NCBI GenBank assembly: GCA_965208575.1
Contig: CBDBOV010000002.1
Coordinates: 608,001-672,000 of the forward strand
DNA: 64,000 nucleotides
Direction of reading: 5' to 3'
Source of the DNA: Spirochaetia bacterium
GTDB taxonomy: Bacteria; Spirochaetota; Spirochaetia; SZUA-6; Bin103
Part shown: positions 141-11,452 of the stretch, in pieces
How the letters are laid out: each line of letters starts with the position of its first letter
How positions within the stretch are numbered: position 1 is the first letter of the stretch
Notes under the pieces: model-generated
Databases searched by the model: none
Told to the model about the DNA's origin: nothing
The model's input: only the letters and a program-made list of their open reading frames with translations
Translations under genes and position numbers: made by a program

Positions 141-905
141 TCAGCTCGAAAGACGTGCCGTAATCCTAAGCGAAGGCGCTGCGTACGCGGCGGCATGCGC
201 CAGAGTTCCAGGCGCAGCGCAAGAGTCACCTACCGGATATTCGGCACAATGCAGCACCACCATACCCAATCGGGACAGTTGTCCGACAACGCTTGATAGC
301 GAATGCATCCACTCGCGCGGACCGGGCTTCCTAATTATGCGATTTCCATCGGACCAGATCCATTTACGAATCGGCTTTCTCTCCGCTCCATCTTGAAATA
401 AGCTCCTCACAGAGTAGCCACGACCGTCCCAACTATCAACATCCAAGTTGGCTGCTCCCGGGTTTGCAAATTCCAAAACATACCAACCGCCGGGCTTAAG
501 CACATGTGCCACGCCACCGAACGACCTCCAGGGGTCCGGAACAAAATTGATGGACCACGCGTGCCAAACAAGGTTGAACGTATTCGCCGAAAACCGTTCA
601 AGCTCACGCATGTCCCCCAACTCTAGTTGAACATCGTATCCAAAGTGTAACGCCGCCTCCCGATCTCTCTCCAACTGATTCTCGGAAAAATCCAACACTG
701 TAACCCTGGATCCGAGTAGCCCGAACACAGCGCCATGCTGACCTCCTCCGCCGGCAAGGCAAAGCACGCTCGATCCTGTTACACACTCGTAAATATTTGC
801 CGTCCCATATATTTCCAAAGCACTGTCATATGTAAGCTCGAACCATGGCCTAGAGAAGCCAACACCAGCGGCGCTAAGAAGAAGCGATGGTCGTGGGCGT
901 TCCAA
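141..905 (-). CDS. Class I SAM-dependent methyltransferase (start uncertain)
   Basis: Motif I VLCLAGGGGQ, acidic VTVLDFS, GDM motif, LKPGG; visibly lower GC than the neighbouring nad DNA. Confidence 0.8.
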   Translation of the reverse strand: MERPRPSLLLSAAGVGFSRPWFELTYDSALEIYGTANIYECVTGSSVLCLAGGGGQHGAVFGLLGSRVTVLDFSENQLERDREAALHFGYDVQLELGDMRELERFSANTFNLVWHAWSINFVPDPWRSFGGVAHVLKPGGWYVLEFANPGAANLDVDSWDGRGYSVRSLFQDGAERKPIRKWIWSDGNRIIRKPGPREWMHSLSSVVGQLSRLGMVVLHCAEYPVGDSCAAPGTLAHAAAYAAPSLRITARLSS

Positions 906-955
906 GTGGTAACCGTGGGGATACGTATGGCAACTCTATAGGATACTTTAGTAAT

Positions 956-1513
956 AGCGACGTGTGCGTGACCTCGGCCAACGTGTACCGCATCATCGAG
1001 CGGCTGCCGCAGCGCGAGATCCTGTTCGTGCCCGACCGGCTGATGGCGGCCAACATCGCCCGCGAGATGGCGGCGCGCGGCATCGACAAGGTAATCCACA
1101 GCTCCGACGGCACCTGCCTGGTGCACGACCAGTTCACCGCCGGCGCCATCGAAGAGGCGCGCACACGGTTTCCGGGAGTCAAGGTGGTGAGCCACCCGGA
1201 GTGCACGCCGGAGGTGACCGCGGCCAGCGACTTCGTCGGCAGCACCGGCAAGATGATGGAGTACGTGCGCGACACCGACGCCACCTACTTCATGCTGCTC
1301 ACCGAGTGCGGCCTGGTGAGCCGGGTGGAGGTCGAGAACCCCGGCAAGCAGTTCGTCGGCTCCTGCCGCCTGTGCCCGCACATGAAGCGCAACAGCCTGC
1401 AGAAGATCCGCGACGTGCTGGTCGATCCGCAGCCGCACCAAATCATCGAGCTCGACGAGACGGTGCGGGTGGCGGCGCTGCGCTCCATCGACCGGATGTT
1501 CGAATTGACGTGA
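956..1513 (+). pseudogene. nadA: Quinolinate synthase NadA, C-terminal half only (5' truncated)
   Basis: DVCVTSAN, FVPD, GTCLVH, SHPEC, DFVGST, TECGL and CPHMK motifs; homology starts abruptly at 956 against AT-richer DNA. Confidence 0.85.
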
Positions 1514-1974
1514 TCCCGTTGTCGGCGCGGCGGGTCATCGAGACCGCCCTGGAGGAGGATCTGGGGCTGGGCGATGTCACCGGCAGCGCCGTGGTGCCGG
1601 CCGGCAGCGAGTGCCGGGTGGCGGTGGTGGCGCGCGAGGCGCTGGTGGTGTGCGGCGCCGAGATCGCCGCCGCCGTGTTCTGGCGCCTCGACGCCGACCT
1701 GAACGTGGAGCCGGCGCTCGCCGACGGCGCCGACGCCGGCCCCGGCGACCGCGTGCTGTACGTTTCGGGCGCCGCGCGGCCGATCCTGGCGGCAGAGCGC
1801 ACCGCCCTCAACCTGCTGCAGCACCTGTCCGGCATCGCCACCACGACCCGCGCCTATGCCGACCGGCTGCGCGGCACCGCGGCGGCGGTGTGCGACACGC
1901 GCAAGACCACGCCCGGCCTGCGCGAGCTGGAGAAGTACGCGGTGCGCTGCGGCGGCGGGCGCAACCACCGCGCC
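1510..1974 (+). pseudogene. nadC: Nicotinate-nucleotide pyrophosphorylase NadC, N-terminal part
   Basis: ALEEDLGLGDVT, ERTALNLLQHLSGIATTT, DTRKTTPGLRELEKYAVRCGGGRNHR; GTG overlaps the nadA stop. Confidence 0.88.
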
Positions 1975-2942
1975 GTGGACGCCATCGTGCGCGACGGGCC
2001 GCGCTTGGTGCGCGAGCTGCTGATCGACGACCTGCAGGTGGCGTTCGACCGCGACGCCGGCGGCGCGCTCCGCTTCACCCGCGAGGCGTCGCACTCCCGG
2101 CACCGCATCATCTACGCCAAGGACCATACCGGGCGCGCCATTCTGACCGCCCTGCACCGGCGGCTGGCGGAGCTGGCCGCGGCCGGCACCCTGCCCGGCG
2201 GCGGCAGCCTGACCGTGGCCACCGGCTGCTTCGCCGTCGACCTGCTCACCCTGTCGCACAGCTCGGTGGACTTCCTGGACCGCTACCGGCCGCTGAGCTG
2301 CATCGGCGCGCACGTACTGGACGTGGCCGCCGGCGAGGTGCGTCCGATCATGGCCAAGAAGACCGTCCTGGCCACCGGCGGCCTCGGCCAGGTCTACCTG
2401 CACAGCACCAACGACGCCGGCGCCTACGGCCACGGCGTGGCGATGGCCTACCGGGTCGGCGCGCGCGTCATCAACATGGAGTACGTGCAGTTCCATCCCA
2501 CCGTGTTCCACCGCCGCGGCGAGCGCCCGTTCCTGATCTCGGAGGCGGTGCGCGGCGAGGGCGGCGTGCTGATCAACCAGCAGGGCGAGGCCTTCATGGA
2601 GCGCTACCATCGCGACGGCTCGCTGGCGCCGCGCGACGTGATCTCCCGCTCCATCCACTCCGAGCTGCTGCGCGGGGCCAGCGACACCGTGTACATCGAC
2701 TTGGCCGGCGTCGACGCCGACTATGCGCGGCGCCGCTTCCCCACTATCAACGCCCGCCTGCTGGCCGCCGGCGTCGACATGACCCGCGAGCCGATCCCGG
2801 TGGTGCCGGCGGCGCACTACTCGTGCGGCGGCATCCACACCGACATGGCCGGCGACACCAACATCGCCCACCTGAGCGCCATTGGCGAGACCGCCTGCAC
2901 CGGCCTGCACGGCGCCAACCGGCTGGCCAGCACCACCGCGCC
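1964..2942 (+). repeat. 11-bp direct repeat ACCACCGCGCC at 1964-1974 and 2932-2942, flanking the nadB insert
   Basis: Identical 11-mer read at both junctions, 968 bp apart. Confidence 0.9.
1975..2934 (+). pseudogene. nadB: L-aspartate oxidase NadB, internal segment nested in nadC
   Basis: TREASHSRHRII, LATGG, NMEYVQFHPT, LISEAVRGEGG, LAPRDVISR, PVVPAAHYSCGGI, GETACTGLHGANRLAST; lacks the N-terminal FAD-binding GxGxxG. Confidence 0.88.
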
Positions 2943-3026
2943 TCGCTGGCCGACTGCGTCATGATCAAGGACAACCACATCGCGGTGGCCGGCGGCGTCG
3001 CCGCCGCGGTACGGCGCGCCCGCTGA
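2932..3026 (+). pseudogene. nadC: NadC continuation fragment
   Basis: HRASLADCVMIKDNHIAVAGGVAAAVRRAR, the canonical IKDNH motif that directly follows GGGxNHR in NadC. Confidence 0.85.
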
Positions 3027-3054
3027 GCGCGTAGGAGTCGCTCTTGAAGTCGGC
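3022..3054 (-). pseudogene. nadA: Tiny inverted NadA N-terminal fragment
   Basis: ADFKSDSYALS resembles the NadA ADFxGDS(Y/L)xLS motif. Confidence 0.55.
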
Positions 3055-3140
3055 GCAGCGCGCATGGCGGAGGCATGCCGCGTCCTGCGTGACGCGCTCG
3101 GTTGTTGACGCCGCGCGGCGACATCCTGATTCAGGTGCGG

Positions 3141-3453
3141 TCAGGGGCGCGGGCGGGTGCGGTCGAGGGAGTCGTTGCGGTAGTGGCAGCCGGCGCTGCG
3201 CGGGTTGCGCAAGGCGGCGTAGGTGATCAGCAGCGCGGTCTGCACGGCGTTGCGCAGCGCCAGCAGGCGCGGGGTGAGGGCGTTGTCGGCGTAGAAGCCG
3301 TCGATCTCGCTCTTCAGCTCGCGCAGCATGTTGCCGGCGCGGTCCAGGCGCTTGGCGGTGCGCACCAGCCCGACGTAGTGCCACATGGTGTTGCGGATCA
3401 CGCCCAGATCCTGGGTGATCAGTTCGTCGTCCGGCTCGGCGGACGCCATCTCT
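3141..3453 (-). pseudogene. nadB: NadB C-terminal helical domain, inverted
   Basis: IRNTMWHYVGLVRT, LRNAVQTALLITYAALRNPRSAGCHYR. Confidence 0.85.
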
Positions 3454-3746
3454 GCGCCGCGCAACCGATCGTCACCGGCATCATGGCAAACAACAACCAG
3501 AACCGTACGCTGAGTAATCGGCAACGTGGTCAACGCAACGAGCAAGCGCATGCGGAATCGCGGCTCGCCCAAGGTGAACGGGCAGACCCTTGTCGGCATT
3601 TCGAAACTCGTCCTTGGCTGAAACTTCGCTCCGTTCGGCTGACGCGAGAGCCGCATCTGTGGCACAGTGACAACTGAGAGTTCTCGTGAACATGTGTCGC
3701 AAACCAAGCCGATCTTGTCGGCAGGTGAACCACTCCGAGTAGTACC

Positions 3747-4154
3747 ATGCAAGTCGAGACTCTGCGGCGCAGACTCCGCGTGCTGGTCGCCAAGACCCCG
3801 GTGGTAGGCGTTGTCCTGTCCGTCGCCACCCTGTACGGACTGTGGCTGGTGGCGACCACGACAGCCGTCCCGGAGCTCATTTCGGCGACGGCGCAACCGT
3901 CGGACAACGGCGTGTTCTTCGCCGATTTCCCTACCACGCCCGGCACCTCCATAGTGCGCGTATCGATCGTCGACGGCAACGGAGAGAGATTCGAGGCGAA
4001 GCTGCTCCGTCGCGAGAGCACGACGGCACGAACCCAGATCTGGGCCCGCTCGGACGGCCGGATCGCAACACCGGGCGCCACTATGGAACTTGCCGTAGGT
4101 GAGCGATCTTTGCTCAGCTACGCCGTTGCGGTGCTGTTTCGGCGGGACGAATGA
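3747..4154 (+). CDS. Small membrane-anchored protein with HlyD/MFP-like C-terminus
   Basis: N-terminal TM helix; C-terminal PGATMELAVGERSLLSY resembles HlyD PGMxxxxEIxxGxRxxLSY; ATGA overlap with the next gene. Confidence 0.55.
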   Translation: MQVETLRRRLRVLVAKTPVVGVVLSVATLYGLWLVATTTAVPELISATAQPSDNGVFFADFPTTPGTSIVRVSIVDGNGERFEAKLLRRESTTARTQIWARSDGRIATPGATMELAVGERSLLSYAVAVLFRRDE

Positions 4155-9064: not shown

Positions 9065-11452
9065 GTGACTAAGCTGTGGTACAAGGCGCCGGCGAGAGAG
9101 TGGCTGGAGGGGTTGCCGATTGGCACGGGTAGGTTGGCGGCGATGGTGCTCGGCGCCTTCCGGCGGGAGCGCGTCGCCCTGAATCACGAGTGCCTGTGGA
9201 AGGGGGTGAATCGCCGCCGGGACAACGAGGTGAGCCGGGGCGCGCTGCCGGAAGTGCGGCGCCTGCTGCTGGCGGGCAACTACGTGGACGGGACGCGCGC
9301 CGCCCGGGACGCGTTCGGCGGCGGTGGCGGCGGCAGCGGGCGCCCGCAGCGGGTGGACCCGTACCAGCCCGCCGGCGACCTGCACCTGGAGCTGCTAACC
9401 CCCGGTCCCATTGCCGATTACCGCAGGGAGCTGGATCTGGATACGGCCAGTGCGACGGTGTCGTATCTGGCCGGGGGCCGCCGGTTCACCCGCCAGTACG
9501 TCGCGCACCTGGTCGAGGACCTGGTCCTGGTGCGGCTGACCCACGACGGCGAGCCGTTCGACTGCGTGGCGTGGCTCGACCGCACCCACGATCACGACTG
9601 CGAACTCACCTTCACCACCGAGGCGCCGGCCATGGATGGCGCCGGCACCGGTGCCGGCGGCGGCGCCGCCGGTGCGGGCGAGGCGGACGCGGCGGCGTGC
9701 CTGACCATGACCGGGGACATTCGCGGCGGCGTGGATTTCCGGGTGCGCGGTGAGGTGTGGTGCCGGGGCGGGCGGCGGCGCGTCGTCGATGGGCGCAAGC
9801 TGCTGTGCGAAGGGGTCACCGAGGCGCTGTTCGCGGTCGACATCGGCGTGTCGGCGTTCGGCAGGTCCGCCGCCGACGAGTGCGGGGCGCGGCGGCTGCG
9901 CCCCGCACTTGCATCGGATGCGGGCGCCTGGGACGACCTGCTGCGGACTCACGTCAGCGAGCACGAGCGCCACTTCGGCAGCATGCGGCTCGACCTGGCG
10001 CTGCCGGACACCGACGTGGCCGGCCTGCCCACCGACGAGCGCATCCGGCGCGTGCGGGAGGGGCAGCCGGACCCCGGCCTGGCGCTGCTGTACTTCCACT
10101 ACGGGCGCTACCTGCTGTGCGCCTCCTCGGCCACCGCCGCGCTGCCGGCCAACCTGCAGGGCAAGTGGAACGAGGACCTGCAGCCGCCCTGGGAGAGCGA
10201 TTACCACCACGACATCAACCTGCAGATGAACTACTGGATCGCCGAGCCGGCCGGCATGCAGCGCTACGTGGAGGCGCTGCTGCAGCACATCGAACGCTTC
10301 GTGCCGCACGCCCGCAAGGCGGCCATGGACCTGTACGGCTGCCGCGGCGTCTGGTACCCGATCCAGACCGACGCCTGGGGCCGCTCGACGCCGGAATCGT
10401 ACGGCTGGGCGGTGTGGATCGGGGCCGCCCCGTGGCTGGCGCAGCACGTGTGGTGGCACTGGGAGTACGGGCACGACGCCTGCTTCCTGCGCACCCGCGC
10501 CTACCCCTTCTTCAAGGAGGTGGCGGCGTTCTACGAGGACTACCTGGTCGAAGATGACGCCGGCGTGTTGCAGATCGTGCCGTCGCAGTCGCCCGAGAAC
10601 CGCTTCGTCGGCGACGGCGGCCCGCCGGTGAGCATCTGCGTGTCGGCGACCATGGACGTGATCCTGGCCCGCGCGGCCTTCGACTACGCGGTCCGCTCGG
10701 CCGAGATCCTGGACGTCGACCCCGAGTTGCGCCGCCGCTGGCGCGGCATGGCGGCGCGCCTGCCGGACCTGCGGATCGGCCGCCACGGCCAGTTGCAGGA
10801 GTGGAACGAGGACTTCGACGAGGTGGAGCCATCGCACCGGCACGTCTCCCACCTGGTCGGGCTGCACCCCGGCGACCTGCTGGACCCGGAGCGCACTCCC
10901 GAGCTGTGGCGGGCGGCCGAGGTGAGCCTGGAGCGGCGGCTGGCCGCCGGCGGCGGCCACACCGGCTGGAGCCGGGCGTGGACCGCCTGCCTGTTCGCCC
11001 GGCTGGGCCGCGGCGAGGACGCCTGGGAACACCTGAACCACCTGATCACCGACTTCGCCACCGACTCGCTGCTGGACCTGCACCCGCCGCGCATCTTCCA
11101 GATCGACGGCAACCTGGGCGGTGCCGCGGCGGTGATCGAAATGCTGCTGCACAGCTACCGCGGCGAGCTCCACCTGCTGCCGGCCCTGCCGGCGGCGTGG
11201 CCGGAGGGCCGCGTGTCCGGCCTGCGGGCGCGCGGCGGCGTTACCGTAGCGATGGCGTGGCGCAACGGCGAGCTGGTCGAGGCGACGCTGGAAGGCTGCG
11301 TCGCCGGCCCCTGCACCATCCTGCACGCCCCCGTACACTGGCAGGTCACCGACACCGCCGGCCGCGCCGTGCCCATCATCCGCACCGGCCACCGCATCAC
11401 CTTCCCCCTCTCCCCAGGCAAACCCTGCCGCCTGCGAACAGTCGACGGCTGA
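9065..11452 (+). CDS. Glycoside hydrolase family 95 (alpha-L-fucosidase-like)
   Basis: W.EGLPIG.GRLAAM, YGRYLL, ANLQG.WN, DYH.DINLQMNYW, SPEN, HRHVSHL, TGWS, FQIDGN. Confidence 0.92.
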   Translation: MTKLWYKAPAREWLEGLPIGTGRLAAMVLGAFRRERVALNHECLWKGVNRRRDNEVSRGALPEVRRLLLAGNYVDGTRAARDAFGGGGGGSGRPQRVDPYQPAGDLHLELLTPGPIADYRRELDLDTASATVSYLAGGRRFTRQYVAHLVEDLVLVRLTHDGEPFDCVAWLDRTHDHDCELTFTTEAPAMDGAGTGAGGGAAGAGEADAAACLTMTGDIRGGVDFRVRGEVWCRGGRRRVVDGRKLLCEGVTEALFAVDIGVSAFGRSAADECGARRLRPALASDAGAWDDLLRTHVSEHERHFGSMRLDLALPDTDVAGLPTDERIRRVREGQPDPGLALLYFHYGRYLLCASSATAALPANLQGKWNEDLQPPWESDYHHDINLQMNYWIAEPAGMQRYVEALLQHIERFVPHARKAAMDLYGCRGVWYPIQTDAWGRSTPESYGWAVWIGAAPWLAQHVWWHWEYGHDACFLRTRAYPFFKEVAAFYEDYLVEDDAGVLQIVPSQSPENRFVGDGGPPVSICVSATMDVILARAAFDYAVRSAEILDVDPELRRRWRGMAARLPDLRIGRHGQLQEWNEDFDEVEPSHRHVSHLVGLHPGDLLDPERTPELWRAAEVSLERRLAAGGGHTGWSRAWTACLFARLGRGEDAWEHLNHLITDFATDSLLDLHPPRIFQIDGNLGGAAAVIEMLLHSYRGELHLLPALPAAWPEGRVSGLRARGGVTVAMAWRNGELVEATLEGCVAGPCTILHAPVHWQVTDTAGRAVPIIRTGHRITFPLSPGKPCRLRTVDG

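Follow-up and report, generated by a model that had tools for sequence, protein, structure and literature searches.

The window analyzed here is a stretch of 64,000 nucleotides (C2:608001-672000) from a 6.5-Mb genome (G000) that is 95% complete and assembled in six contigs; coordinates without a contig prefix are those of the window. Near its left end lies a scrambled copy of nadA, nadC, and nadB that consists of five source pieces, all derived from one locus of ~3.4 kb. Piece 1 (956-1974, plus strand, corresponding to C2:324138>323120 at 97% identity) is a natively contiguous segment from the 3' part of nadA into the 5' part of nadC. It carries nadA codons 156 to 340 (956-1513, plus strand) without codons 1 to 155, which include Cys119, presumably one of three iron-sulphur ligands, and nadC codons 1 to 155 (1510-1974, plus strand), which run in frame into the middle of nadB. 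Piece 2 (1971-2934, plus strand, 964 nt; aligned over 1962-2934 with C2:322509>321537 at 96% identity) comprises nadB codons 84 to 404 and sits inside nadC, which resumes in piece 3 (2932-3023, plus strand, equal to C2:323130>323039, 92 nt, 97% identity) with codons 152 to 182, out of frame with the fusion open reading frame (ORF). Piece 4 (3022-3054, minus strand, equal to C2:324370>324402, 33 nt, 97% identity) is an inverted segment of nadA codons 68 to 78. There follow the final 18 codons of a gene for a PemK/MazF-like toxin (3052-3108, plus strand), 82% like the genes downstream of nad in two relatives, G001 and G003, and, inverted, nadB from codon 439 to its stop (3141-3452, minus strand; aligned over 3139-3452 with C2:321122>321434 at 96% identity). 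The toxin gene end is probably the donor's natural neighbor of nadB, as in G003, and these two parts are therefore counted together as piece 5.

Alignment to the intact operon on C2 bore out the coordinates and strands given for the fragments in the initial annotation. That annotation had counted six fragments; there are five, since the natural order is nadA-nadC-nadB and the C-terminal half of nadA and the N-terminal part of nadC form one native piece. The pieces that are inverted are the short nadA motif and the nadB end, and not, as had been proposed, the nadA-nadC block. The matches are not due to chance: pieces of 92 to 1,019 nt align at 96 to 97% identity, and each of the six junction words is single in the genome (6/6).

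The window copy lacks nadA codons 1 to 67 and 79 to 155, nadC codons 183 to 279, and nadB codons 1 to 83 and 405 to 438. Pieces 1 and 2 are fused in frame into an open frame of 484 codons with QRPTase and FAD_binding_2 matches; however, this NadC(1-155)-NadB(84-404) fusion is without the GAGAAG motif at NadB residue 15, which we take to be the N-terminal FAD-binding motif, and without NadC from residue 156 on. All of the nad pieces in the window fall under the NCBIfam family cut-offs. No full-length NadA, NadB, or NadC is encoded by the window copy, which is thus not a functional de novo NAD operon, and from the sequence no piece is predicted to yield a working enzyme.

The pieces are embedded in a 9.7-kb island that lies between two copies of a GH95 glycosidase gene that are 98.6% alike, the left copy being outside the window (C2:604993-607353) and the right copy within it (9075-11435, plus strand). 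The island encodes a BrnT-like/CopG-like pair (below Pfam cut-offs), a methyltransferase, two ABC transporters, and an SDR protein. On the left, the nad pieces abut the gene for the S-adenosylmethionine-dependent methyltransferase (141-905, minus strand), the junction lying 50 nt past the ORF start. On the right is a remnant (3452-3500, minus strand) that is 84 to 86% like a stretch at C5:816815 and is read as the N-terminal part of an ABC-transporter-like gene; it is cut at the right junction and looks already decayed. The pieces had been described as sitting in lower-GC island DNA, which holds for the flanks (GC fractions of 0.54 and 0.58) but not for the pieces themselves, whose GC fraction (0.715) equals that of the intact operon (0.715).

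The two GH95 copies differ at 34 positions; the first 167 nt account for 20 of these and the final 32 nt for 9. Their outer flanks match the GH95 neighborhoods of relatives and their inner flanks do not, so the island was added with a host gene as a duplicated anchor. This layout is compatible with integration of circularized DNA or with related routes (PMC3240628, PMC3784515).

The intact operon and the origin of the scrambled allele

Family searches placed nad genes at three places in the genome. An intact nadA-nadC-nadB operon lies at C2:324603-321114, ~290 kb from the scrambled copy; its NadA and NadC score over the NCBIfam cut-offs, and its NadB scores 440 bits against a cut-off of 452.75 but spans model positions 3 to 487 of 489 and is full length. 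The initial annotation had suggested that de novo NAD synthesis was lost and had itself named an intact operon as the finding that would speak against this; since such an operon exists elsewhere in the genome, de novo NAD synthesis is not lost, and the genome has probably lost nothing through the scramble. The third place is a second nad copy at C2:308197-304957, which is closer to G003 (94% identity) than to the intact operon (84%). From the start of its nadA 75 codons are missing, its nadC is interrupted by a stop, and its nadB contains two frameshifts. Further nad 3' scraps lie at C2 positions 297415 and 295287. There are five group II intron reverse transcriptases in the genome, one of them within a nadB remnant.

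The order nadB-nadA-nadC, from which the scramble had been supposed to start, is not that of the intact operon or of its relatives, which read nadA-nadC-nadB. In 22 of 23 family relatives, that is, in all of those with a match, nadA lies ahead of nadC and colinear with it, and the operon aligns in one piece in all eight genus loci fetched. Downstream of nad, G001 and G003 carry PemK/MazF-like genes that are confirmed by Pfam, and in G003 a similar pemK-like remnant lies directly beside the nadB end. Of the 23 family relatives, G001 alone carries an additional nadB 3' scrap, which is colinear.

The pieces are 95.5 to 97% identical to the resident operon. The codon differences are mostly silent (57 silent versus 17 amino-acid-changing; pN/pS, 0.11), and the coding pieces contain no stops or frameshifts. 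At 75 differing sites the intact operons of four relatives were compared: among them, 25 sites showed the scrambled state alone, 21 the resident state alone, and 29 both states, and there was no site at which neither was present; the scrambled state was therefore found in relatives' intact operons at 54 of 75 sites and was private to the copy at none. The differences are standing variation that built up while the operon was functional. The silent bias and the absence of private sites (0/75) rule out decay of a duplicate of the resident operon. Furthermore, the scrambled nadB end adjoins a pemK-like gene, and not the mazE-doc pair that adjoins the resident nadB. Because the differences are mostly silent and are standing in relatives, and because the nadB neighbor is a different one, the pieces probably represent the allele of a sister strain that was recently scrambled. 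Instead of an operon rearranged in place, as had been thought, the window would therefore hold an extra allele. The view that the event was recent was upheld by the lack of stops and frameshifts in the coding pieces and of private differences among the 75.

Junctions of the scrambled copy

There are four internal junctions, J2 (1971-1974), J3 (2932-2934), J4 (3022/3023), and J5 (~3054), and two outer ones, J1 (955/956) and J6 (3452). Exact overlaps with respect to the resident sequence are 4 nt at J2, 3 nt at J3, 2 nt at J4, and 2 to 5 nt at J5, where the range depends on the donor allele; these overlaps were measured against a reference that differs from the donor by 3 to 4%. Microhomology is above chance, with a sum of at least 9 nt over J2 to J4 (P = 0.011), random joins within this GC-rich operon averaging 0.86 nt. 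J2 also shows a longer imperfect match of about 12 of 14 nt, as judged by eye. J1 has no left partner, and the 1-nt overlap at J6 was measured against a distant homologue. There are no non-templated bases at J2 to J4, and neither flank has nad homology that could have served as a long anchor at J1 or J6. The abruptness of the joins, recorded earlier as lacking insertion sequences or an integrase, was borne out: no transposase, integrase, or terminal repeats were found at the junctions in the flanking ORFs, in a Pfam scan of 12 proteins, or among the repeats listed. Of eight breakpoint windows scored for hairpins, four fall in the most stable fifth and four in the less stable half. Overlaps of 2 to 4 nt are also compatible with end-joining, for which Ku, a LigD-type ligase, and LigD polymerase domains are present, and in this respect they tell against a specific assignment to template switching.

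An 11-nt nadC word is present at both ends of the nadB insert, the first copy (1964-1974, plus strand) ending in the 4 nt of J2 microhomology and the second (2932-2942, plus strand) beginning with the 3 nt of J3 microhomology. These 11 nadC bases are thus used twice, at least four of them beyond the junction overlap with the resident sequence, and the path therefore exits nadC and returns 11 nt upstream of the exit. A staggered cut or two donor molecules could also yield such an 11-nt repeat, which is a further point counter to template switching. With several clustered junctions, microhomology, and reused bases, the locus retains the character of a complex rearrangement of the FoSTeS type that the initial annotation had ascribed to it.

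Read support and distribution

Read support was assessed on Logan contigs from four runs of one sample, and a junction was considered bridged when a contig reached at least 31 letters on each side. These four runs hold 67 to 89% of the words of the stretch and are probably the source of the assembly, and for that reason they are not independent evidence; the runs that contain part of the stretch are labeled sponge, coral-reef, or marine metagenome. Among the contigs listed, J1, J3, J4, and J5 were bridged in at least one run. J2 and J6 were crossed at a length under the 31-letter rule: J2 by a mismatch-free 56-nt contig in runs X19 (depth, 18.0) and X21 (depth, 18.6), with 26 letters on the short side, and J6 without mismatch at flank depth, with 30 letters on the short side. 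Junction contigs had depths of 18, 18, and 19.4 in X19, against 11.8 and 17.8 for the flanks, and of 18.6, 23.4, and 23.6 in X21, against 20.2 and 23.7. Flank contigs continued unbroken across J1 and J6. In X19 the nadB part of the scrambled allele had a depth of 17.9, equal to that of the J2 contig (18.0), and an intact copy of the scrambled allele is therefore not evident in the sample; other alleles of the nad genes are present in it.

Elsewhere, J2 and J4-J5 had no exact match in metagenome contigs, and J3 had none in genome contigs, a set from which near-identical genomes may be missing. In the two of 18 small-share runs that were examined at J2 (X1 and X2), only native continuations were seen among the contigs listed. 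No scrambled nad copy was found among the matches listed in 40 genomes of relatives or in the 23 family relatives, and the latter also yielded no partial form of the scramble. As far as searched, the scramble is private to the source population. It is a real, recent, and dead rearrangement.

Discussion

The explanation that we favor, with about even confidence that it is correct, is that the shuffled five-piece extra copy arose in one burst of microhomology-mediated template switching on the allele of a sister strain, leaving a copy for which no working enzyme is predicted. A DNA end in the island would have begun copying in the middle of nadA and continued into nadC. It would then have jumped 620 nt forward into nadB, where 964 nt were copied, and gone back into nadC no more than 11 nt from its exit point, where 92 nt were copied. 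A strand switch would have led to the copying of 33 nt of nadA, followed by a jump past the nadB end, the copying of ~400 nt backwards, and the rejoining of island DNA. We infer that this was a single event, that it involved copying rather than ligation, and that the DNA was of foreign origin. Copying is favored because the twice-used nadC bases are not explained by plain breakage of one molecule. The event may have affected DNA that was entering the present lineage, or it may have happened in the sister strain, prior to the transfer of the entire GH95-bracketed island.

The short runs (92 and 33 nt) and the paired strand switches match the repeated template switches seen in starving Escherichia coli (PMC3161906); it is a point against the parallel that junctions there have 3 to 30 nt of microhomology and mostly span tens of kilobases. 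Common to the two cases are several non-homologous microhomology junctions, direct and inverted switches, and the insertion of nearby sequence at the joint, as in microhomology-mediated break-induced replication (MMBIR) or long-distance template switching. Unlike the E. coli events of PMC3161906, the nad scramble is natural and fixed in a wild population, comprises five pieces from within 3.4 kb, has overlaps of 2 to 4 nt, involves a sister-strain allele and a distant island, and is not accompanied by amplification. A second process, SPDIR (10.1101/2023.11.22.568220), joins ectopic single strands at extended imperfect microhomologies that resemble J2; however, the patches given there range from 3 to ~100 bp, whereas the nadB insert measures 964 nt and is accompanied by a duplication.

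The most serious alternative is that fragments of sister-strain DNA were taken up and joined, in no set order or orientation, at a double-strand break in the island, either by Ku/LigD or by microhomology end-joining, which we regard as unlikely but deserving of attention. The genome encodes the competence proteins ComEC and two DprA proteins, an intact ku adjoining a LigD-type ligase gene (over the cut-off for TIGR02772; 218 versus 228 bits for TIGR02779), and two LigD polymerase domains, but the presence of genes is no proof that they acted here. Parts of the operon are missing, as they would be after loss of fragments, and other alleles of the nad genes occur in the same sample. In Sinorhizobium meliloti (PMC6379672), nonhomologous end-joining (NHEJ) captured foreign fragments at a break in both orientations, twice as tandem cassettes. 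Shared with that system are the insertion of foreign DNA without homology in either orientation and the Ku and ligase genes; there, however, one or two whole cassettes were inserted, whereas five interleaved pieces with reused bases are found here. Against ligation stands the position of the nadB piece within nadC, where bases are reused and the path comes back to the site that it had left. To yield five pieces, a 3.4-kb stretch would have to be broken at least nine times, with a staggered cut in addition; J2 to J4 have none of the added bases that end-joining might leave, and the source bases are not each used only once.

It has also to be considered that a spare copy acquired its present order gradually, through successive illegitimate recombinations (deletions, inversions, and homology-facilitated insertions), a course of events that we judge improbable. 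Further nad remnants do lie in the genome, namely, the second copy and the two 3' scraps described above, and patchwork islands are many. Repeat pairs of 600 bp or more that lie no further than 80 kb apart number 169 direct versus 31 inverted across the genome (unfiltered for insertion sequence copies). On the other hand, no intermediate was seen in the 23 family relatives, and the pieces are free of stops, frameshifts, and private mutations, so that five or six separate events would have had little time to occur. A single example cannot demonstrate one event, and the genome is full of layered islands, an observation that counts against template switching in a single burst. Routes that rely on homology are relevant to the frame of the island: homology-facilitated illegitimate recombination or single-crossover integration of circularized DNA (PMC3240628) and transformation-made merodiploids (PMC3784515) account for islands that lie between two copies of a host gene, as with the GH95 pair, and for the second nad copy. 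The GH95 pair could thus anchor the island as a whole. The internal shuffle is not explained by these routes, and J1 and J6 offer them no long anchor.

A broader proposal is that sister-strain DNA regularly undergoes cutting or pausing at fixed, sequence-directed sites and is restitched by templated insertion through Ku and the LigD polymerase, as a bacterial counterpart of chromoanasynthesis that builds the integrase-free islands of this sponge-associated lineage; we consider this quite improbable. It was suggested by three scramble breakpoints that lie within ~10 nt of unrelated nad-remnant breakpoints (operon positions 331/323, 3164/3154, and 3267 by a group II intron site at ~3275-3292). 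This coincidence is a lead only: it concerns three of seven comparators, was noticed post hoc, and draws on a set of which six of seven crowd the nadB 3' end, one is the intron site with an uncertainty of 13 nt, and two come from a weak 67-nt match. The 23 family genomes held no further nad remnants for this comparison.

Whole-genome amplification typically produces chimeras with local jumps and inversions within a few kilobases, and the library type of the sample is not on record. The scramble is, moreover, present only in the four runs of one sample and has no match in the other runs and contigs searched. An amplification or assembly chimera is nevertheless very unlikely, because the junction contigs match the flanks in depth and no flank contig breaks off at J1 or J6; the 75 differences from the resident allele also tell against it, as no intact copy of the scrambled allele is evident in the sample. 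That the in-frame fusion or the shuffled layout was selected or programmed can be practically dismissed, since its open 484-codon frame with two domain matches is offset by a one-in-three chance of an in-frame join, by the missing GAGAAG motif, NadC remainder, and NadA Cys119, by scores under the NCBIfam cut-offs, by its absence from every relative searched, and by the finding of no sigma-70-type promoter-like site in 600-3800 (0.2 expected, a weak test).

Chromothripsis and chromoanasynthesis in eukaryotes are marked by clustered junctions, shuffled order and orientation, and lost segments. The nad scramble has all of these in common with them; however, it is of kilobase scale and concerns an extra copy, the resident locus being unshattered, and its reuse of bases fits the copying type. 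In the open-access literature, as judged from titles and the beginnings of abstracts, we found no report of a natural scrambled housekeeping operon in bacteria. The locus is therefore of interest as an unusually clean natural multi-junction microhomology rearrangement with its parent operon in the same genome, of a kind known mainly from laboratory bacteria and eukaryotes, and it shows that an event of this type can become frequent in a natural population and can create in-frame fusions of housekeeping genes. The metabolism of the organism is unchanged by the scramble, and a single dead copy tests no open question; its weight would be greater if such scars were recurrent in the lineage and tied to Ku/LigD or DNA uptake.

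Other candidates were tried and set aside. The position of the nad pieces would suit DNA that filled in the joint when a circle bearing GH95 was closed, but this reading was dropped because the divergence at the foreign GH95 ends (20 differences in 167 nt) greatly exceeds that of the nad allele. Jumping by a reverse transcriptase was not adopted; the pieces lie on both strands and contain no intron sequence. A genome-wide habit of scrambling was likewise rejected, since 36 of the chains obtained from 270 locus pairs contain a back-jump or an inversion and only the nad copy has five pieces with both. Two of the other regions were inspected: the apparent inversion on C3 is a dispersed 48-nt repeat, and the case on C5 is layered paralogous island DNA.

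Second nad operon and further nadB remnant

A second, degraded nad operon lies 13 kb downstream of the intact nadA-nadC-nadB operon of the genome under study (G000:C2:324603-321114), at G000:C2:308197-304957 (locus L036), where it is cut at nadA codon 76. It is 84% identical to the resident copy and 94% identical to that of the relative G003; judged by its sequence, it is another species' allele. Its nadC carries one stop, and its nadB two frameshifts.

A further nadB 3' remnant (80%) is found at G000:C2:297415-295096 (L036 and L080); it is interrupted by a 2-kb group II intron-like reverse transcriptase (RT) element in antisense orientation, and approximately 13 nt of nadB are absent at the insertion. 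This element is present in five nearly identical copies in all.

The region on the nadB 3' side is variable in G000, G001, G003, and G005 (L037 and L055 to L057) and contains many toxin-antitoxin pairs. A 143-nt second copy of the nadB 3' end is located 1.5 kb downstream of the G001 operon (G001:C1:394312-394453). A relative of the BrnT-like/CopG-like gene pair of the 9.7-kb island that holds the scrambled nad pieces lies 7 to 13 kb beyond nad in five genomes of genus g2. In most genomes of this genus, the nadA-nadC match is interrupted by approximately 1 kb of other DNA (for example, G018:C1:4000906-4001869), which is probably an additional operon gene.

GH95 copies bracketing the island

Pairwise comparison of the two GH95 glycosidase genes that bracket the 9.7-kb island, at positions 9075-11435 of the window and at G000:C2:604993-607353, showed that their middle portions are 99.8% identical and that the differences fall mostly at the ends, with 20 within the first 167 nt and 9 within the last 32 nt. 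This distribution is as would be expected if a circle had been opened inside the GH95 gene and had integrated with gap repair. The GH95 gene of G001 (G001:C1:6719163-6720092; L073 and L076) has an internal deletion of 1.4 kb.

Patchwork islands and end-joining genes

Contig C5 carries a mosaic of island pieces (G000:C5:166300-172500), within which the middle of the gene at C5:187161-188105 sits 1.5 kb past that gene's joined ends. Two short dispersed repeat families occur in island DNA: one of approximately 85 nt (G000:C5:168437-168520), with dozens of copies, and one of approximately 48 nt (G000:C3:132084-132134), with at least approximately 20 copies among the matches listed.

Bearing on end joining as a rival explanation for the scrambled copy, C5 also encodes ku and a stand-alone LigD-type ligase (L078:1405-3546), with an open reading frame following them; a LigD polymerase domain lies approximately 4 kb further along.
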